Positions 1 through 10,442 of a stretch of DNA of 64,000 nt are shown here, one piece after another. Within the stretch, counting starts at the first letter, position 1; each line of letters opens with the position of its first letter. The notes below the pieces were generated by a model. The model was not told where the DNA came from, made no database searches, and saw only the letters and a list, made by a program, of their open reading frames with translations. This stretch comes from Allosphingosinicella sp. (GTDB lineage: Bacteria > Pseudomonadota > Alphaproteobacteria > Sphingomonadales > Sphingomonadaceae), in the NCBI GenBank assembly GCA_036386475.1, contig DASVVQ010000046.1, positions 8,624 through 72,623 of the forward strand, in the 5' to 3' direction. A program made the translations under genes and the position numbers.

Positions 1-545
1 AGCACCGAGCCGTCCGTGTCGGTGAACACGAAATGGCCGCTGCTGTGATCGCTGCCGATGAATTCGAGGCTGTGCCCGCCGAAATTGACCGGCGCATAGG
101 TGCCTACGAACCCGCCCGTGGGATTGGTGCTGCCGCCGATGAAGCCGATCGAGCGGCTGCCGATCGTCACGCTGTAGAGATAATTCTCCATCCCCGGCGG
201 CGGTTGCTGCCAGGGCGTTTCGACGATGCTGTTGCCGATCCGGATGTTGAGGTTGTTGCTCCAGCCTTGCGTCGGGGTGCCCGAATAAGCCGAGAAGCCC
301 TGGTCGAGGCTGCTGAGATAGGTCCGCTCGAGAGTCAGGCCGACGGGGAAGTCGACGCCGCCGATCGCGAGGTCGCGCTCGGCGTGCGAAAAGGCGCCCG
401 TCGCGAAGCTGACGCCGGTTGGGCTCTGCGTATCCTGGCGCGGCGGCGGAGTCGGCCCGCTTTCGGCCGCGGCCGGCGCGATCCAGCTGGCAGTTGTCAG
501 CAGGGCGCAGGAAAGGGCTCCCGCCCGAAGCAAGTTGTGGGTCAT
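1..545 (-). CDS. RHS/YD-repeat protein, N-terminal part (signal peptide plus DUF6531-like domain); runs off the left edge
   Basis: Not in the ORF track; translated by hand from ATG at 545 (GGAG RBS upstream): MTHNLLRAGALSCALLTTASWIAPAAAE...TGVSFATGAFSHAERDLAIGGVDFPVGLTLERTYLSS...QGWSNNLNIRI. The TG-x-DL-x-L-x-RTY-S...GW pattern is typical of RHS N-termini. The frame stays open to base 1. Confidence 0.75.
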   Translation of the reverse strand, partial: MTHNLLRAGALSCALLTTASWIAPAAAESGPTPPPRQDTQSPTGVSFATGAFSHAERDLAIGGVDFPVGLTLERTYLSSLDQGFSAYSGTPTQGWSNNLNIRIGNSIVETPWQQPPPGMENYLYSVTIGSRSIGFIGGSTNPTGGFVGTYAPVNFGGHSLEFIGSDHSSGHFVFTDTDGSV

Positions 546-619
546 CGTCTTTCTCCAGTCTCGCGCCGGGGGCGCGTGCCGCCTTTCGCCTCTCCGGCGA
601 GCGGCGGCGGTTCAGGCCG

Positions 620-859
620 TCACTGGCCGGTCTTGGTCTCGCGGCGGGTGCGGTTGTCGGCCTTGTCGTGCTCGTATTCGGTCGCGGTCTTGACGATGTT
701 GGTGGCCGTGTCGCTCCGTTCCACCTTCACCAGCCGCCCGCGGGCGTCGTAGCGGTAGCGGATCGTCTCGCCCGCCAAAGCGGCGGTGGCGGCGACGGCG
801 AGCGCCGCGGCGCCGACCAAAGCGGCGCGCTTCAGCCGCAGGGCTTCTTTCCGGTCCAT
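620..859 (-). CDS. Small secreted YD-repeat protein
   Basis: MDRKEALRLKRAALVGAAALAVAATAALA signal peptide, then ETIRYRYDARGRLVKV...YEHDKADNR (YD-type repeats). Lies directly upstream of the RHS gene on the same strand. Confidence 0.7.
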   Translation of the reverse strand: MDRKEALRLKRAALVGAAALAVAATAALAGETIRYRYDARGRLVKVERSDTATNIVKTATEYEHDKADNRTRRETKTGQ

Positions 860-1020
860 TTGGGCATCCCTTCCGGTTCCTTCCGGCGACTCGGGAGCGA
901 GTCGCGTCCTGGAACGGAGAAAGAACATCCGAAGTCCTATTATGCAAGGGGTGGGCGAAATAATAATCCTATTGGGTTACTCATGCGGTGGCCGGCGCGG
1001 CGCCGGGTGCCGCCCCGCGG

Positions 1021-1099: not shown

Positions 1100-2035
1100 A
1101 TGGGAGCAGGTGTGGAGCAGGCCGCGGCGAAGCTGGTGCAATGGGCGCTTGCCTTCGCGGCGATGCTCGCCTCGGCGCTCGCCGTCGCGCCCGGCGGCGC
1201 TTCGGCCGCGGTGTCGAACTGCTCGGTGACCTCGACCGGCCTCATCTTCTCGTCCTACAACACCCAGACCAAGGCCGCGGTCGACGGCACCGGCACCCTC
1301 AGCGTCACCTGCGACGGCAGCGGCAACAACAGCCTCAACCTCAGCCTCACCGGCGGCCACCTCAACAGCTGCGCCAATCGCCAGATGCGCAGCGGATCGA
1401 ACCCGCTCAACTACCAGATCTTCCGGACCGCGGCCCGGACGACCAACTTCTGCGACGGCGGCAACCGGCTCGACATCGCCTTCGATTTTCCGTCCGGAAC
1501 GACGCGGATGACCCGCAGCTATTCCATGTTCGGCCGTGTCCTGGCCAACCAGAATCCGGTCTTCGCCACCAATTTCACCGATGTCCTGAGCGTCATCCTG
1601 CGGCGCTCCAACGGCACCAGCGCCGCAACCGGCACGACGACGATCTCCGGCAGCGTCTCGCCGATCTGCTCGGTCTCGTCCGGCACTTTGGGCTTCGGCA
1701 ATTACAACGGCACCGCCGCCGTCCTGTCCACCGCCGCGGTGCTGGTCAATTGCTCGAACGGCGGCACCTACCAGGTTTCGCTCGGCGCGGGCGCGAACGC
1801 CGACGGCACCACCCGCCGCATGGCCGGCCCCTCCTCCTCCTTCCTCGGCTACGAGCTCTACCGCGACAGCGCCCGCTCGCTCGCCTGGGGCGACGGCGCC
1901 GCCTACGGCGCGCGCGTGTCGGGCACCGGCTCCGGCTCGGCCCAGACGCTCACCGTCTACGGCCGCATCCCCGCCGGCCAGAACGTCGCCGTCGGCAGCT
2001 ATTCCGACAGCGTCGTCGTCACCGTCGAATATTAG
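1100..2035 (+). CDS. Csu-type fimbrial protein with two spore coat protein U (SCPU) domains
   Basis: Signal peptide, then two domains with CSV...C, L-x-Y-x-LY/IF and the C-terminal YGRIPAGQNVAVGSYSDSVVVTVEY motif characteristic of SCPU/CsuA-B pilins. Confidence 0.85.
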   Translation: MGAGVEQAAAKLVQWALAFAAMLASALAVAPGGASAAVSNCSVTSTGLIFSSYNTQTKAAVDGTGTLSVTCDGSGNNSLNLSLTGGHLNSCANRQMRSGSNPLNYQIFRTAARTTNFCDGGNRLDIAFDFPSGTTRMTRSYSMFGRVLANQNPVFATNFTDVLSVILRRSNGTSAATGTTTISGSVSPICSVSSGTLGFGNYNGTAAVLSTAAVLVNCSNGGTYQVSLGAGANADGTTRRMAGPSSSFLGYELYRDSARSLAWGDGAAYGARVSGTGSGSAQTLTVYGRIPAGQNVAVGSYSDSVVVTVEY

Positions 2036-3183: not shown

Positions 3184-4203
3184 TCACTTCCCAGGACCGG
3201 CGCTATCGGCCGCCGGCGCCGCGCCCGCACCCGCACCCGCCCCCGCCTTCGGCTTTACCAGCTTGCGCACCGCCGCGAACAGAGCCCCCGCCGCGGTGAC
3301 GAGCGCGGCGAGCGCGGCCAGCGCCTTGGTCCAGCCTTCGCCCTGCTCGGTGGCGTTCTTCGCGGCTTCGAGCGAGCGCGTGCCGGGACGCAAAGTCACC
3401 CGCACGCTCGCCGTCGCCTCATATTCCTCGAGGTCGGCGCTCGGACCGCCGGGCGCAGCGAGGCGCGGGCGGGCGACGACGCGCAGGGTGCGCGGGCCCT
3501 CGGCGCCGACCGGCTTGACGGTCCAGTTCCACGACGCGGTCCGCTCCGGCCCGGCGCCCCTCTCGATCCAGCCCGCCGGCTCGATCTCGAAGCCCTCGCC
3601 GGTCAGCTGCGCGACCATCGTCGAGGCCGCCTGCACGCGCACCTCGGCGCGGACCTGTCCGGGCGCCGCCGCCGTCGCCGGGCTTTCGGGGCGGCGCAGC
3701 AAGGCGCGGACGTCGGCGCGCTCGTCGCGGTACATCTGCGCCGGGGCGATGAGCTCGAGCCGGCGGGCCTGGAGCGCGCCGCGCTGGCGCTGCAGCGTGT
3801 CGCAGTGCCGCACCGAGACATAGGCCTCGACAAGCTCGCAATATTCCTCCCCGCTCGCGCCGCCGCCGGCCGGGGCAGCCGCCAGCCGCGGCCGCGTCGC
3901 CGACGCGCGCGGCGGCGCCGAGCCGCCGACCGGCACTTCGGGCGCGCCGTCGTCCGTCCCCATGTCGTTGAAGTCGGCGCCCGTGTTCATGCTCTCGTCG
4001 ATCGCCATGGCGTTGTTGCCGCCGTCGCCGCCGTCCCAAACCGGCGGCGGCCCGTCGATTTCGTAGGCGCCGTTCACCGCATCGACGGCATTGACGATAT
4101 CGGGCGGCGCCGGCTGCTGGCGACCGTTGCGGCCCGCGCAGCCGGACGCGGCCGCCAGGCTCGCCGCCGCCGCGAGCGCGAGGATCCACTTCGTGCCGCG
4201 CAT
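3184..4203 (-). CDS. Hypothetical lipoprotein with a beta-rich C-terminal domain and C-terminal membrane helix
   Basis: MRGTKWILALAAAASLAAASGC lipobox-like leader; acidic/Pro-rich linker; MVAQLTGEGFEIEP...ASWNWTVKP...TLRV beta domain; hydrophobic WTKALAALAALVTAAGALFAAVRK near the end. Confidence 0.75.
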   Translation of the reverse strand: MRGTKWILALAAAASLAAASGCAGRNGRQQPAPPDIVNAVDAVNGAYEIDGPPPVWDGGDGGNNAMAIDESMNTGADFNDMGTDDGAPEVPVGGSAPPRASATRPRLAAAPAGGGASGEEYCELVEAYVSVRHCDTLQRQRGALQARRLELIAPAQMYRDERADVRALLRRPESPATAAAPGQVRAEVRVQAASTMVAQLTGEGFEIEPAGWIERGAGPERTASWNWTVKPVGAEGPRTLRVVARPRLAAPGGPSADLEEYEATASVRVTLRPGTRSLEAAKNATEQGEGWTKALAALAALVTAAGALFAAVRKLVKPKAGAGAGAGAAPAADSAGPGK

Positions 4204-4269
4204 CTCACCCCCCTCGCGAACCCACCCCAGTCCGCGGGCACAGCCTAGCAAGCCTTCCCGGAGAGGGCC

Positions 4270-4510
4270 AGCGCGACAAAGCCTCACTTCCTGCGCACAA
4301 AACAAGGCTTGTGCGATCTCGGCCGCTCCAGGAACCGTTGGCTCTTAGAAGACGCTGTCCCGAGCCCATAAAAGGCTCACGGCTGTCGCTTCTGAAGATA
4401 AATATGCCGCAAGCCGACGCTCTAGCGTCACTCTCGACCCCGCTCGGAGCCCAACTTCTCCCGCGCAGCGACGTCTCGGAGTGGCAAACCGAGCGTAGCT
4501 GAAGGACGAC
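4270..4510 (-). pseudogene. Possible heavily decayed serine recombinase N-terminal relic
   Basis: SFSYARFATP in one frame, then ETSLRGRSWA...SLVLCAGSEALSR in another, loosely resembling YxRxST...DSLxRQ...LxVExLDRLSR. Several lesions must be assumed, so this may be chance. Confidence 0.25.
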
Positions 4511-4560
4511 GGCCTCGAGTCGCGCCTGCTCCCCACAGAGCGAACCCCCCGGAATTGCGA

Positions 4561-4590
4561 AGGGCCCGCCATTCCGGCGGGCCCCTTTCC
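4561..4590. terminator. GC-rich hairpin, candidate intrinsic terminator
   Basis: agggcccgcc-attc-cggcgggccc followed by ctttcc; lies downstream of the 830-aa gene. Confidence 0.45.
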
Positions 4591-4592
4591 GA

Positions 4593-4660
4593 TCATCCTG
4601 AGGAGCGGCTGAGCCTGTCGGAGTCGAAGACGACCGCAGGTGAAGCCCGTCTCGAAGGAC
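4593..4660. repeat. REP-like palindromic element (TCATCCTGAGGAGCG...CGTCTCGAAGGA type)
   Basis: tcatcctgaggagcggctgagcctgtcg...gcccgtctcgaaggac. The inner GAGCCTGTCG also occurs in the element at 60421. Confidence 0.55.
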
Positions 4661-4743
4661 ACCTCTGTGAGCTGACCACAAAGCGCCGCACCAGCGTGAC
4701 GCTTTCAAGCGTTTTTACCGTGTTGGATTTACCAGCTGCGCTT

Positions 4744-7236
4744 TTACGGTACCGCAGGGTCGGACAGGAAATTGCTGTATAGGCGGACGAGGTCGAGATC
4801 GCTCGGCGCGATCACGCGCCGATATGCGGGGGCCGCGCGGCCGAGCGAAGCGACGAGCTCCACCAGCCGCCTGCCCTTCGCGCCGGGAAATGGCGCGGTT
4901 CGATCACGTACGGTCCTGATTGCCTCAAAGTTGAGAAGGCTGATGGGCTTGAGCTCGTCTGAATGCTTGTAGAATGGGTGAACGTAATCCTCTGCGAATG
5001 CCGCAAACTCGTCATCGAGAGTGTCCGATGGAACGGAGGCAATATACTGCATCACCCGTCCCGAGACGGTGTTCACGGCCGCTTGGAGCATAAGCCTACT
5101 TCGCTTTCTGGCGAACGCCTGATCGCCGGCGAAGTCAGATTCCTTGAGTGTGGCAAAGGCTGCTTTGAGGTCGCTTCTTCCCCCCTGCAGCAGCGCCGCG
5201 ACCTCCCCAAGTTCGGCATCGTCTGAGAAGTGAGACCATGTTTCCGCGCGTTGGAACCGTTCGACCGCTAAAAGATGGAGTGCGGCTGCGAGCTGAAGCG
5301 TTCCGCGCTCCAACAGGGCGCGTCCGCGTCGCAAAGGTGACAGGACAAGGCCCTGATCGTCGCCCGGGGTCAGCAATCGATAAGCCCGGCGATATTCCTC
5401 GATCGAAAGACAATCAAATCGAACTGCCAGGCCATATAGATAGCGAAGTTCGATAACGATCCCCTCGTCCCCGCCAGCCTGGGTCGGCAGCTCTGCTTTG
5501 CCCTCCTGGGCAGCGGCCTGGCTGCCATGGACGGCGAGCCGTTTCGCCTGCGCCCACCCTCCGAGCGACATCATCAGTACGATCGCGAACACGATCTGCT
5601 GAGGATCGGGCGACTCCGACGCCTGGCCGCCGCTGAGAACTCGAACGTCCCGGATCGTCGCGTCAATAGGCCCGGACAGCGCACGTTCCAGACGCAGATC
5701 CAGATTGTCGCCAAGACTTATCAGCAACTGGACGACGCTCCGAACGCGATCGAATCCCCGTGCGCGCTCTTGCATGTCCTGTCGCTCGTGGCGTGCGTCC
5801 TCGGCAAGCGCCGCCAAAGCACTCCACATGTGATCGATCTCAAGGTTAGCCACGATGTTGTTCTGCGCTGCAAGCAGATCACCGCCGGCTTGATCGATCG
5901 CAGCGCGCAGTATTTGATCCTGATGCCTCCGTCGCCCTTCGACGACCGGCAGCGTAATAAGGATAGAGTTCCCATACGCCAGCCGCCAGATTCTAACAAT
6001 TTCTGCCAAGGCAGGCGTATTGATCCACCTTAGGTGCTTCTCGAGCAAGCTCATTTCCGACGAGCTACTGCCACGCACAGAAGTTGCACCGAGAGCGATT
6101 TGCTTCGCAAGCACTTCAACAAAGCGGGGCCTCAAGCTGATCGGATCGAGAAACACGTCGAGCGAGGAAACAATGTCCCTGAACGTCGCAGTGCTTTTCT
6201 TGTCGTCAATATTAAGACCGAAGGCAGATGAATACGCACGTAAGTTAATCAAGGGCAGATACTGGATTGCATGCCTCAGCAAATATGGACCGGCGACAGC
6301 CTTTTCTAAATACCATATGGAATAAGCGCGGTGTACGAAGGTTGTGCCGGTAATTAGCACGGCGCGCTGGGCCTCAGGCAGTTTGCGGTTGAGGCTGATG
6401 AGGTCGGCAAGGGTACACGCATCTGCAAGTATTCTATCTCTAACGTGCTCAGATAGCTGGTTGTAAATCTCAAGGCCGCTCTTCTCCGAGACGTAGGGCT
6501 GCCCCTCCCGCTCGCTTGCGAGGCGGGCACACCACTCCGTGACGCGCACAAGAGAACGGCTTTCGGCGACATCGCGGTAAGCAGGAATTACCCGAGCGCC
6601 GGTCCATTTGCCCTTCGCGCGCGCGAGAGCCAGCACGGTCTCGGCTGAACGATACTTTTGGGGGTTGCGCGTCTCATAAGCGCGCTCGAAGAGCTGCATC
6701 GTAAGCGATGATGCCCGCTCACATAATTCTAGGATCTCCGTGTCCGTATAGCCAGCGCCCGATTTGGCGATTATTTCTGACGAAAACTCCCGCAGCGCAG
6801 CTTGTATCTCCGCATCGTCTTCGACGGGAGGAGGCCCCAGGTCCGGATCCTGCCCGCGCCGCAGTATCGCAGCTCTAATTTTTTCGACCTCGCGGTTATG
6901 CATATCCGACAAGTAGACGGGTTCGCCTCTCTGGGCAGGCAGGCGCTGCGACAAAATGTACTCAGTCGTTGCATACTCCGCAGGGATATGGACTGGAGTG
7001 GCGTTCACTTCTTCAAACAAGTCTAGTTGTACAGCTCGAGGTGATGCTGACAAGCTCCGCTCTGCCCGTTTACTGGGTGTTTCGAGGTAAAGTCCGACGA
7101 CATCGGCATCAATAAAGTACAGGATCTTGTTGCTAGTTGAATCGCCCCAGCGATTGTCAAGTGAGTTTAAATGCGTCGATATTTTGAGTGCGATGAGGCT
7201 ATTCACCATCATCCGGGCAGTGACGGGGCCGGTCAT
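4744..7236 (-). CDS. 830-aa hypothetical protein with putative PIN-like N-terminal domain and helical (TPR-like) C-terminal region
   Basis: Long ORF with an ATGA overlap to the upstream gene. ILYFIDADVV (aa 38-47), HNREV (aa 113-117) and ADACTLA...AVLITG (aa 271-297) resemble PIN-domain motifs. The remainder looks alpha-helical. Confidence 0.7.
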   Translation of the reverse strand: MTGPVTARMMVNSLIALKISTHLNSLDNRWGDSTSNKILYFIDADVVGLYLETPSKRAERSLSASPRAVQLDLFEEVNATPVHIPAEYATTEYILSQRLPAQRGEPVYLSDMHNREVEKIRAAILRRGQDPDLGPPPVEDDAEIQAALREFSSEIIAKSGAGYTDTEILELCERASSLTMQLFERAYETRNPQKYRSAETVLALARAKGKWTGARVIPAYRDVAESRSLVRVTEWCARLASEREGQPYVSEKSGLEIYNQLSEHVRDRILADACTLADLISLNRKLPEAQRAVLITGTTFVHRAYSIWYLEKAVAGPYLLRHAIQYLPLINLRAYSSAFGLNIDDKKSTATFRDIVSSLDVFLDPISLRPRFVEVLAKQIALGATSVRGSSSSEMSLLEKHLRWINTPALAEIVRIWRLAYGNSILITLPVVEGRRRHQDQILRAAIDQAGGDLLAAQNNIVANLEIDHMWSALAALAEDARHERQDMQERARGFDRVRSVVQLLISLGDNLDLRLERALSGPIDATIRDVRVLSGGQASESPDPQQIVFAIVLMMSLGGWAQAKRLAVHGSQAAAQEGKAELPTQAGGDEGIVIELRYLYGLAVRFDCLSIEEYRRAYRLLTPGDDQGLVLSPLRRGRALLERGTLQLAAALHLLAVERFQRAETWSHFSDDAELGEVAALLQGGRSDLKAAFATLKESDFAGDQAFARKRSRLMLQAAVNTVSGRVMQYIASVPSDTLDDEFAAFAEDYVHPFYKHSDELKPISLLNFEAIRTVRDRTAPFPGAKGRRLVELVASLGRAAPAYRRVIAPSDLDLVRLYSNFLSDPAVP

Positions 7237-8171
7237 GCAGCTTCTCGAACCGTATAATCAGGAACATATCTTTCAAGTGTCTGCCACCAGCTCTCCTTTT
7301 CTTCTAAACGAATAAATTCCTCGGCCATCGTATACGCGTCAGTGACGCTCTCGCGCGGTCGCAAGGCAAGAAAATCATGCACAAGGATCGAGTGCTGGTG
7401 AAGGTCTAATGTTATGGTCAGGGCTGCATCTGTCGTCACATAGTCGCCACTGAACTCAAGTCTCGCACCCGGCAGATTCCGGCCAAACAAAACCTCCAAG
7501 ACGGGTTCATGTTCGGGACTTCTGCCGCTTGCGAGCCCCGTCAGAACTGCAAGGTGACGGCCGTCGGCACATAGCGCGCCTAACGTAATTGCTAGTATAT
7601 TGTCGCCCGCGTCGGCCATGGCATTTACCTCGGCCAGTCGAGCGAGTGCTGCATCGAGCCAGACCTCGGGATCCTCCTCGATTTCAGTGCGAAGAAATGG
7701 TATTGCCAGTTCAACCGCGAGGTTCTCGTCGTCAACGCAGTTCTTCAACCCTTCCTCGAACCTGCTTCGAAGTTTGGCCTGCTGTCGAGCGCCCACCGAA
7801 GCGACACGCTGGAGTAGGTAGGGAGATGCGGACGCGAACTCCCCGCGGACGAGTTTGAGCAACAGGATGTGATTTGTAGCGGGACTACCGAAATAGTCGA
7901 TGAGCCGAACCAGCGCAGTCATCACGGCATCTGCGAAATCAGCATCGAAGCGGTGCAGCGTCGTGTCCGCCAGGGCTTCCGCCAGCGCCTGCTTCATCGG
8001 CAGGCCCAGCCTGGCGGATTGCAGCTGCTTGGCAAGTTGGGGAATTGGATCGCGGGCCGATTCCAGGGTTAGGCCCGGAAATTCATATCCGGTCGGGGGT
8101 CCGTCTGTTCCATAGACCCTGTGGAGGGCATCAACGAGCCAGGGGGCTGTAATTTGGTGGGGGGATATCAT
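7233..8171 (-). CDS. 312-aa hypothetical helical protein
   Basis: ORF sits 15 bp after the upstream stop and overlaps the next start (ATGA). Leu/Ala/Glu-rich; no family recognised. Confidence 0.7.
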   Translation of the reverse strand: MISPHQITAPWLVDALHRVYGTDGPPTGYEFPGLTLESARDPIPQLAKQLQSARLGLPMKQALAEALADTTLHRFDADFADAVMTALVRLIDYFGSPATNHILLLKLVRGEFASASPYLLQRVASVGARQQAKLRSRFEEGLKNCVDDENLAVELAIPFLRTEIEEDPEVWLDAALARLAEVNAMADAGDNILAITLGALCADGRHLAVLTGLASGRSPEHEPVLEVLFGRNLPGARLEFSGDYVTTDAALTITLDLHQHSILVHDFLALRPRESVTDAYTMAEEFIRLEEKESWWQTLERYVPDYTVREAA

Positions 8172-8186
8172 CCAGCCATCCGTCCG

Positions 8187-9200
8187 CTATTCCAAAGCCG
8201 CCTTCAAGGCCGCGACCACTCCGCTGAGGCGAACAGGTGGCTCCAACAGCTTAGCATAAAGTCTGTCGTCGCGTGCAACGGTTATGCGAGTAGGTTTTGA
8301 GCCGGAAATGTCGGCGTGCTCTCCCGTAAAGCCTTTGAAATGCGCGTCGATCAGAGCATCCATTGGAATCGAAGACAGCACCAACTCCTCAAACCCGTCA
8401 ACCACCGTTCTTGCGACACGCAATCGTTCGAGATCTGCAGCTGTCGCGCCACCGGTGGCGGCGCCCCCGATTCGCGGCGGCCTCGCCTTGAAGCGCCTGT
8501 GACTGGTGGCTTCCACAACGGTCGGCGCGGAAACATGTCGAGGAATAGCGCCCCCATGATGGGACGTGCCGCTACAGCGGAACGTGAGCTGCAAAACCGG
8601 TTCGTGGCGATCAATATGCACGAGACCAAGCTGATCGCGCACTCCGTCAGGATCGAGAGCTGCACTCTGACTGTCGGGAGTCCCCCAGAAGATGTCATAC
8701 TTATGGGCATAATTTCTTCCATTTCTGAACGCGGCGTCTTTCAGCGTTTGACATAGAGTGCGTGCGTGGCGCGCGGTCCAGGGGTCGCTCTCGGATCGCC
8801 GGTTCAACCGCGCTTCGGTGCGCACGTAATCCACCACAATCCTATTGTGGTCGTATAGCATGTCTTCCGCGCGTGATGTTGTATAAACTTCAAATGCGTG
8901 CGACCGCCGACTCCCGAGAGGCCGCGAAAATCGCAAAGCCCTGTTCCCCGGGTGGTGTAGAAAGGCGAAGAGAGCCTTTAGAGCAGATCCAGGAGTCTCT
9001 CGAGGCGATAGTGAATGCCGCAGCGGGGTCCACACTCTGTTCTTGAAGTTGCCTGAGTTGATCGGCTCGACTGGAGCGTTCATTCCTTCGTATAGATTAA
9101 TCAGGAAGATGCGTCCACGTGACGTACGACTTAAGAGACCAATTAAGCTCAGCATTTTCCGCGCACCCCCAATCCTGTCACATAACCAGTTAACTACCAC
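8187..9200 (-). CDS. 337-aa hypothetical protein, first gene of the islet operon
   Basis: GTG-start ORF co-oriented with and tightly packed against the next two genes. Enzyme-like motifs DIFWGTPD, LGLVH, PTVVEA and GFEELV. Start codon uncertain. Confidence 0.65.
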   Translation of the reverse strand: MVVNWLCDRIGGARKMLSLIGLLSRTSRGRIFLINLYEGMNAPVEPINSGNFKNRVWTPLRHSLSPRETPGSALKALFAFLHHPGNRALRFSRPLGSRRSHAFEVYTTSRAEDMLYDHNRIVVDYVRTEARLNRRSESDPWTARHARTLCQTLKDAAFRNGRNYAHKYDIFWGTPDSQSAALDPDGVRDQLGLVHIDRHEPVLQLTFRCSGTSHHGGAIPRHVSAPTVVEATSHRRFKARPPRIGGAATGGATAADLERLRVARTVVDGFEELVLSSIPMDALIDAHFKGFTGEHADISGSKPTRITVARDDRLYAKLLEPPVRLSGVVAALKAALE

Positions 9201-9377
9201 GCCGGCAAGCGGCTGAGCACTTGATGGATAGCCGCCTTTCCACTGTCGGCCGAGCGCGGATCAAGTGCAGAGTCCTCCCTAGCCTCCCGCGACATCTCCC
9301 CTCCCTGTCAGCGAAGATGACGCGTCCCATGCGCCTCCTGACGGGCCGTGAAGGATGGGGTTACCTACCGCCGACTC

Positions 9378-9405
9378 CTCCGCGTCTCCGCGCCGCCGCG
9401 CGAAC
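9378..9405 (+). repeat. Short dispersed repeat CTCCGCGnCTCCGCGCC...GAAC, copy 1
   Basis: 24/28 identical to 10443-10470 by direct comparison. Confidence 0.55.
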
Positions 9406-9449
9406 TAATCTTCTTCCTTCCCCGGCCGCGGGCACCCCGTCAGATGCGC

Positions 9450-9750
9450 TCAACCCGCCGCCGGCTTCTGCGCGCCCGCCTTCGCCGCCGCCTTCTCCGC
9501 CTCCCCCTTCACCAGCCTCCTCGCCGCCGCGAACAAAGCCCCGGCCGCCGTCAGCAAAGCCGCGATCGCGCCCAACGCCTTGGCCCAGCCTTCCCCTGCT
9601 CGGTGGCGTTCTTGGCGACTTCCAGCGAGCGCGTGCGGGGCGCAGCGTCACTCGCACGCCCGCCGTCGCCTCATATTCCTCGAGGTCGGCGCTCGGGCCG
9701 CCGGGCGCGGCGAGGCGCGGGCGGGCGGGCGGGCGGCGACGCGCAAGGTG
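9450..9750 (-). pseudogene. Decayed copy of the 3' end of the lipoprotein gene at 3184-4203
   Basis: Aligns with about 3250-3490 (e.g. cgccgtcgcctcatattcctcgaggtcggcgctcgg is shared). Has two 1-bp deletions and an expanded GGGC run, a different C-terminal tail, a stop at 9450 and no 5' half. Confidence 0.8.
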
Positions 9751-9800: not shown

Positions 9801-10232
9801 CTAGCCTTTGCCGGTGACCGCGCTGATCGAGCAAGGCGAGTCGACCACCGCGGTCGCGCCGCGGATCGCCTGCCAGGAACCCTGGACCGCGGTCGGCTTG
9901 TGCTTGTCGAGCGGAACCTTGGCCACCACGGTGACGGGGACCCGTCCGGAGCTGATCGGGGTAGCGGGATCGGCGACCTTGTTGAACGAGGTGAAGCAGC
10001 CGACAGGCACGGCCTGGTCGATTCCGCTGTTCACGCGGATAGTGAAGTTGCAACCCGGATAATTGGATCCCTTGGCATAAGGGTTCGGGACATTGAGCGT
10101 GACCAGCGCGAACGTCTCGTCGCCGGTCTGCTTGGGCAGAGTCAGCGAAAGCCCGGCAATATCGTCCCACCCTCCGCTGTTGGTGATCTGCTGCTGCGAC
10201 AGACTCTGCGCATAGAAAAGCCGCATGCCCAT
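9801..10232 (-). CDS. Small beta-strand-rich hypothetical protein
   Basis: MGMRLFYAQSLSQQQITNSGGWDDIAGLSLTLP... with a GAGGG RBS, host-like codon use and a downstream hairpin. No signal peptide. Confidence 0.7.
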   Translation of the reverse strand: MGMRLFYAQSLSQQQITNSGGWDDIAGLSLTLPKQTGDETFALVTLNVPNPYAKGSNYPGCNFTIRVNSGIDQAVPVGCFTSFNKVADPATPISSGRVPVTVVAKVPLDKHKPTAVQGSWQAIRGATAVVDSPCSISAVTGKG

Positions 10233-10442
10233 GGATCCCTCCCTCTCGGAATGCCTCGTGGGCGAAATGGGCGCCTTACCGGTTCCGAAGACAAGCCGAA
10301 GCTGCACCATTCCGGTGGTGGATATGGAGGCAAACCGTCCGCGTGCAGGCTCGCCGTCGGAGCAATGTATCTGTCACACAACCGGGCGGGGCCCTCTGAC
10401 AGCCGCCGTCCCCACTGCCCTGCTCCGCCTCCTACTTTTATC

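Follow-up and report, generated by a model that had tools for sequence, protein, structure and literature searches.

A mobile three-gene cassette with a PIN-like core protein in Allosphingosinicella: a candidate conflict or defence module

The window analysed here, a stretch of 64,000 nucleotides from Allosphingosinicella sp. (GenBank assembly GCA_036386475.1, contig DASVVQ010000046.1), carries a small gene set of foreign composition in an AT-richer islet. The set consists of three genes on the reverse strand, here called A, B and C, and we find that this triad is one conserved, horizontally mobile unit. We put the chance at about even that the mobile cassette is a conflict or defence module, of an anti-phage or abortive-infection kind, with a PIN-like nuclease core. 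More tentatively, and somewhat below even, we propose that it represents a new, widespread and modular immune family, in which a C protein with PIN-like and helical-repeat parts would be combined with interchangeable two-gene sets (A-B, a flavoenzyme with a protease-like protein, and at least one more), and in which the folds of A and B would be new to immunity.

One conserved, horizontally mobile unit

The cassette is laid out as follows, in coordinates of the window and lengths in amino acids (aa).

8187..9155, reverse strand: gene A, 322 aa, basic (net +12), no domain matches
7233..8171, reverse strand: gene B, 312 aa, acidic (net -19), no domain matches
4744..7236, reverse strand: gene C, 830 aa, core of a wider family

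The original prediction had described three co-directional genes with a 15-bp gap and an ATGA overlap, and the open reading frame (ORF) positions and the sequence bear this out: 15 nt separate the TAG stop of A (8187-8189) from the ATG of B, and the stop of B overlaps the start of C in ATGA. The length of 337 aa given there for A had to be corrected. That length belongs to the longest ORF (8187-9200, counted from a GTG at 9200), but in the alignment the homologues of A start at the position corresponding to the ATG at 9155 (MLSLIGLL...), which gives 322 aa, and gene callers chose the same 322-aa protein on other assemblies of the same organism. The AT-richer, atypical composition was described correctly. 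GC is 0.50-0.62 over 4500-9500 compared with 0.66-0.77 in the surroundings, and GC at third codon positions (GC3) is 0.58-0.63 for A, B and C compared with about 0.88 for host genes; hence, the islet is compositionally foreign. Its codon-position pattern (GC1>GC3>GC2) is that of real genes. As had also been noted, clear transmembrane segments are lacking: A, B and C contain no hydrophobic segment of transmembrane strength, the highest KD19 value being 1.54. No tRNA or Rfam matches were found within the window.

Close relatives keep the three genes together. They are rare: a word-indexed search that covered 5.8 billion proteins returned only between one and three for each of A, B and C, with 41-58% identity. 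The order A-B-C is retained on six unrelated metagenome contigs (L001, L008, L009, L010, L011 and L082). Across these six independent contigs all three ORFs are 40-56% identical and the flanks are unrelated. The same order on six contigs at this level of identity makes the triad more than a chance arrangement. No further close relatives came out of pattern searches that covered species-representative genomes, JGI metagenome contigs and viral contigs, and tblastn with the window C against plasmids and phages gave no match; with a distant member, P0031, it gave one plasmid.

Two observations concern individual copies. A frameshift splits one triad gene in each of two close relatives, A in L009 (1797-2898) and C in L082 (9606-12016), which may be sequencing error (L082 is a long-read assembly) or real decay. 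Beside the triad of the closest relative (L001 5795-6145, reverse strand), GC rises from 0.52 to 0.66, and the segment holds a 116-aa Arg-rich ORF ending in PPRGYGRD, which may resemble small transposon or integrative and conjugative element (ICE) proteins.

The wider family was collected with a C profile searched against 1.84 billion representative proteins (E<=1e-3). This yielded 209 relatives, mostly of 750-900 aa and matching in three blocks, all annotated as hypothetical (including RefSeq WP_313918883.1 and WP_126424246.1) and with a Pfam domain in none of the 10 looked up. For the distribution we used 401 genomes of the phylum, evenly chosen and representing 212 genera. C is present in 13 of them (approximately 3%), from 10 genera, and the A profile matches 14, of which 12 also have C; with one genome holding C only and two holding A only, the co-occurrence is far from random (Fisher p=3.9e-20). 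A complete triad is nevertheless present in one of these two ‘A-only’ genomes, where the first-look filter had overlooked it. In genome G101, A lies at the end of contig C16, and a B-like gene and C lie at the start of C15 (L088, L049), probably a single triad broken by assembly. A separate locus, L087 (G150:C31, 6017-8755), has A-like and B-like genes with no C-like gene detected downstream, and its B-like frame, at 530 aa, is longer than usual.

Within the 20 kb examined around each C locus, the hidden Markov model of the window-clade A matches, at 10 of 12 loci, a gene of 312-394 aa that lies two positions upstream of C, and a B-like gene of 247-416 aa stands between the two. The B-like genes of these genome loci are homologous to one another, whereas homology of the window B to B-like proteins of other branches is not detectable (hhalign probability 0.3-4%). 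An N-terminal W-L-x-x-G-L ... F-P-G pattern common to B and the B-like proteins is a hint only. The expectation that the genes stay together in distant taxa therefore stands for A and C, by co-occurrence and adjacency, and for B by position only. No further conserved neighbour of the triad was found at these loci, and the AT content of the cassette exceeds that of its flanks by at least 3 points at 16 of 19 loci.

Protein C and its exchangeable partners

Protein C is the conserved core of the wider family and can be divided into the following parts.

6202..7236, reverse strand: N-terminal domain of C, residues 1-345, with four PIN-like motifs
6451..6879, reverse strand: helical insertion of approximately 140 residues between PIN-like motifs 2 and 3, from the secondary structure of the AlphaFold2 (AF2) model; no match to VapC
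4747..6201, reverse strand: C-terminal half of C, residues 346-830, predicted to be all-helical and repeat-like

The four motifs of the window protein are YFIDADV (D43), TTEYILS (E92), DACTLA (D272) and VLITGT (T296, T298), for a family consensus of YxFDANV ... TAExLFSG ... DAxxLA ... RxVLVTxD. Among 132 full-length members D43, H113, D272 and R321 are invariant, and N24, D27, Y40, E92, W235, A273, T296, P328 and N331 are near-invariant, as are W417, R499, W561, E596, R606, R639 and E643 in the C-terminal half. Two features of PIN domains are thus found in the family: the acidic residue of the first strand is the invariant D43, and the helix Glu is E92, present in 87% of members and placed on the VapC Glu by hhalign. 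Conservation at the other two motifs is 95% for A273, next to the invariant D272, 90% for T296 and 89% for an Asp at position 298. For the comparison with VapC we built an alignment from PF01850 matches in related genomes. The first half of the N-terminal domain aligns to it with P=1e-3, D43 and E92 being matched to the PIN Asp and Glu, respectively, and the C-terminal half of C, used as a control, gives P=0.46. The second half of the domain falls in the expected register, with D272 on D..iaA and VLVTxD on LvTxN, but the alignment does not reach significance. In the AF2 model, strands occur only at 37-42, 290-296 and 320-322, which include the DADV and VLITG motifs.

The original prediction had called the large protein TPR-like as well as PIN-like. 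TPR proteins (LGN/Pins, Rap and IFIT5) do head the list when the C model is searched against the PDB with Foldseek, but no match is significant, and a TPR-like nature of the C-terminal half is at most tentative. Pfam and NCBIfam find no STAND or other NTPase domain in C, and C profiles have no match among PDB sequences.

Proteins A and B are less readily placed. In A the conservation is centred on one region.

8358..8705, reverse strand: conserved core of A, residues 151-266, from the alignment of distant members

The core motifs are YDIFW-TPD, (A)D-LRD-LGLVH, RPT--(E/D)A--HRRFKAR, WG-TADL and DG--E-V, and N20, R173, G177, L178, P211, L242, G254, E257 and G275 are invariant over 15 members at approximately 20% identity. 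The window-clade A and a distant L020 protein are linked by hhalign at 81% probability (E=1.2e-5). In B, the best conserved part is the first ~110 residues. None of the three proteins has a match at E<=1 in Pfam, NCBIfam or PADLOC, the last including the system models of PADLOC-DB v2.0.0, in which no component matches A, B or C; sequence searches of the PDB, with single sequences and with profiles, returned noise only (E>0.01), and A has no Pfam or PDB relative even with a deeper profile. A match of A residues 33-117 to a cyclodipeptide synthase (6ztu) recurs with two profiles at E values of 0.72 and 0.16, which are non-significant, and we do not trust it. The original prediction could not assign the set to a named defence system, and the empty PADLOC scan agrees; we also found no relevant description of a three-gene PIN/TPR system in the literature.

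A and B are not the only partners of C, since several branches have two other genes upstream of it. At L019, at L040 (from a genome in the same family as the window) and on the Asticcacaulis excentricus plasmid pASEM-1, these encode an FAD/NAD(P)-binding protein of 519-604 aa and a second protein of 242-287 aa. Over its N-terminal 270 positions this flavoenzyme matches PADLOC LmuA (the FMO effector part) at E=1.7e-48. At L084 the flavoenzyme and the protease-like protein are fused into one protein of 773 aa, with a GDSGS motif in its C-terminal part. In the unfused versions the Ser is replaced by Gly or Ala (GDGGT, GDAGG), and these proteins are possibly pseudo-proteases, judging from the motif. 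The flavoenzyme/protease-like set was located at four loci.

L084, 7683-10004: flavoenzyme/protease-like set
L019, 694-3085: flavoenzyme/protease-like set
L040, 6680-9092: flavoenzyme/protease-like set
L085, 6427-8993: flavoenzyme/protease-like set

One of 59 C relatives carries a caspase domain (Peptidase_C14, Pfam E=1.1e-10; PADLOC caspase model 6.2e-9), and this single fusion protein is the only match of the 59 to PADLOC. L017 and L018 have a third, unrelated partner pair that matches neither A nor B. By analogy, a fixed core with swappable partners, fusions and protease modules would fit the pattern of prokaryotic conflict systems.

A possible role in defence and its alternatives

In a defence module of this kind, C would be the conserved core, its PIN-like N-terminal domain a metal-dependent nuclease, probably acting on RNA, and the long helical half that follows a scaffold for binding or sensing. 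The ATGA overlap would allow B to be produced in fixed proportion to C; B is acidic and fast-evolving and hence probably binds C, holding or tuning it. A, basic and with an invariant R/T/R/E set, would be either a second effector or an infection-sensing or signalling component. Phage attack would free or activate the complex, and its nuclease would then shut down either the phage or the infected cell, in a form of abortive infection. We infer complex formation, nuclease activity, trigger and defence role; what points to a complex and to abortive infection is the translational coupling of B and C, the fusions seen in relatives and the defence or mobile-element neighbours of some, though not most, loci.

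Much of this would also suit a toxin-antitoxin (TA)-like module for the addiction or stabilisation of mobile elements, with no dedicated anti-phage role, in which C would be the toxin, the acidic B would neutralise it and A would modulate. The PIN-like motifs of C, the coupling of B to C, the charges of the partners (14 of 17 loci have an acidic B-like protein and 12 of 15 a basic A-like one) and the several copies that adjoin integrases, recombinases or ICE genes are consistent with it. However, VapBC pairs are built of far smaller proteins, B gives no match to a DNA-binding domain, and at most genome loci there is no mobile-element gene within 6.5 kb. We consider such a module distinctly unlikely, although TA and abortive-infection functions overlap and the two readings are therefore not cleanly separable.

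Defence or mobile-element genes neighbour C in five of eight annotated contexts. In L018 (GCA_947493155.1) a fused PARIS AriAB gene (3503-5155, E=1.3e-61) lies 0.5 kb upstream of a distant triad, with a tyrosine integrase downstream and with small-terminase (Terminase_4) and HTH_17 genes, in what looks like a satellite-like element; the sister locus L017 has the same triad and integrase and a different cargo. L084 has a KAP NTPase, an Eco57I-type methylase, a GHKL ATPase and a serine recombinase nearby, and pASEM-1 has ICE-type genes and an integrase. At L083 (Tahibacter) a 1028-aa reverse transcriptase is encoded near the triad, with housekeeping genes on the other side, and a weak TIR_2 fragment adjoins the triad of L082, a close relative of the window triad.

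Several results weigh against a defence module with a nuclease core. The islet itself has no integrase, transposase or known defence gene, the triad being its whole content, and PADLOC scans of A, B, C and the C relatives found no homology to any tested defence protein. Among 95 neighbour ORFs at 11 genome loci, response regulators and histidine kinases are commonest, together with housekeeping genes, and PADLOC matches are few (SoFic, mad2/3, PDC-S04, AriA and a type I REase-like protein), a count that has no background-rate control. A and B have no assignable fold by profile searches, and the AF2 model of A, from a 6-sequence alignment, is unusable (predicted local distance difference test, pLDDT, 37.8). 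For C, no Pfam PIN model matches any of the 69 members scanned (10 + 59), the second half of the domain aligns to VapC non-significantly (P=0.23), the AF2 model, from a 4-sequence alignment, has a pLDDT of 46.8, and the window clade has T-x-T (T298) in the fourth motif instead of T-x-D. The PIN-like nature ascribed to C thus keeps the four co-linear motifs and the first-half alignment in its favour, and it lacks the family match and the structural model. With no Pfam PIN match and a poor AF2 model, we call the N-terminal domain PIN-like by motif only: it is probably that, and not a proven PIN member.

The same neighbourhoods bear on a non-conflict accessory function, such as the processing or turnover of RNA, or else a module serving regulation or metabolism, which we regard as unlikely yet the most serious of the alternatives. 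Response regulators, histidine kinases and housekeeping genes dominate the 11 genome loci, no tested defence homologue turned up, and the flavoenzyme partners of other branches (FAD/NAD(P)-binding oxidoreductases) would point to small-molecule chemistry. Such a function sits less well with the patchy and sparse spread of the cassette, in 3% of genomes and in none of 36 congeners, with its consistently foreign composition and with the lack of a conserved neighbour, and the partner swapping and the protease and caspase fusions are typical of conflict systems.

The edges of the islet have their own features.

4562..4584, reverse strand: putative operon terminator, a perfect 9-bp GC hairpin GGGCCCGCC GGAAT GGCGGGCCC, from sequence inspection
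3184..4203, reverse strand: lipoprotein gene X, 339 aa, lipobox LAAASGC, C-terminal hydrophobic helix
9453..9767, reverse strand: decayed copy of the X 3' end, at the upstream islet edge just upstream of A

The hairpin sits 160 nt past the C stop, with a weak T tract, and a consensus terminator scan did not pick it up. Gene X has host-like GC and forms the downstream flank, outside the cassette. Its 3' end is repeated on the other side: 9485-9750 matches 3231-3490 (260 bp) at 76-92% identity, and the translated remnant, with one in-frame TGA, has 49% aa identity to X residues 234-333. The low-GC segment is therefore bracketed by two X-derived repeats. On the coding strand the order is X remnant, islet, intact X, and a simple integration into the X 3' end would leave the reverse. 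X is confined to this species among 41 genomes of the genus and the cassette was not found in 36 other species of it; with C and X missing from 36-40 other species of the genus, the whole stretch is species-specific.

These edges, and the fourth motif of C, could be read as signs that the window cassette is an inactive relic, its PIN-like site having lost the last acidic residue and the islet being what remains of an old insertion. T298 replaces the Asp found in 89% of the family, so the window protein could be weakened or non-catalytic; the bracketing repeat has diverged to 76-92% identity, and no mobility gene is present in the islet. Against this, A, B and C are all intact ORFs, and all 4-5 members of the clade have T298 yet retain long frames and the motifs at 41-52% identity, which implies purifying selection. 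Nor need T298 abolish activity, given that the VapC set has mostly Asn, not Asp, at the equivalent position. We judge a relic improbable, more so than a TA-like module.

The original prediction also placed the islet near an RHS gene, and RHS-repeat gene fragments do lie a few kb off, at window 620-928 and beyond the window start. The RHS locus (window 1-930 and the upstream contig, L002 16378-22250) contains short ORFs of 79-102, 646, 864 and 92 aa, and looks degraded or mis-assembled. That the triad is cargo of this locus, an orphan polymorphic-toxin and immunity set, would draw on the distance of approximately 4 kb to these fragments. But an SCPU gene and gene X intervene, Pfam finds no RHS, PAAR or toxin domain in any of the three proteins, and the 19 other loci have no RHS genes in their annotated or most frequent neighbour families; we reject this reading as highly improbable. 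The intervening SCPU (spore coat protein U) gene, at window 1100-2035 on the forward strand, encodes a two-domain protein (E=1.4e-51), and on the far side of the islet a gene at window 9801-10310 on the reverse strand encodes a Bc2l-C N-terminal lectin domain (E=1e-19).

Should the cassette be a defence system, it would add a family present in approximately 3% of the genomes of a major phylum. C D43, E92 and D272, and A R173, T212, R221 and E257, are handles for experiments, and A and B offer two new protein families for structural work and classification. Even without a defence role, this mobile three-gene unit would be common enough to merit a name.

Comparison with known systems

The nearest parallel for C is found in the VapC ribonucleases (PF01850, PIN clan), in which counterparts of the strand motif fDaNV, the helix motif TAExLFSG, D-A-x-x-L-A and V-L-V-T-x-D occur in the same order. 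Unlike VapC, C has the helical insertion of approximately 140 residues and a further helical half of 480 residues; H113 and R321, invariant in C, are not PIN features, and in the window clade the last acidic position is taken by T. A type II VapBC module consists of a DNA-binding antitoxin of approximately 70-100 aa directly upstream of a PIN toxin of approximately 130 aa. The triad differs in having no small antitoxin: B, at 312 aa, has no domain match, and C is 830 aa long.

In joining a nuclease-like N-terminal domain to a long helical repeat, and in its patchy, mobile distribution, C resembles the Avs/AVAST proteins with TPR-like sensors. It departs from them in having no STAND or NTPase domain and two obligatory partner genes, and its TPR assignment is non-significant. 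The branches that pair C with a trypsin-like or caspase-like domain recall the nuclease-protease pairs of Hachiman, AVAST and canu described by Tuck et al. 2025 (PMC12799240). There the nuclease is a metallo-β-lactamase (MBL)-fold DNase activated by cleavage, whereas here the nuclease candidate is PIN-like, and the window cassette has no protease-like gene.

The comparison with Lamassu concerns the sister branches. The window A, B and C match no LmuA, LmuB or LmuC, there is no SMC-like ATPase, and the FMO partner is absent from the window cassette. By contrast, the first gene of the sister-branch set encodes the flavoenzyme that matches the FMO effector part of LmuA, which suggests that Lamassu and the C family draw on a common pool of effector domains.

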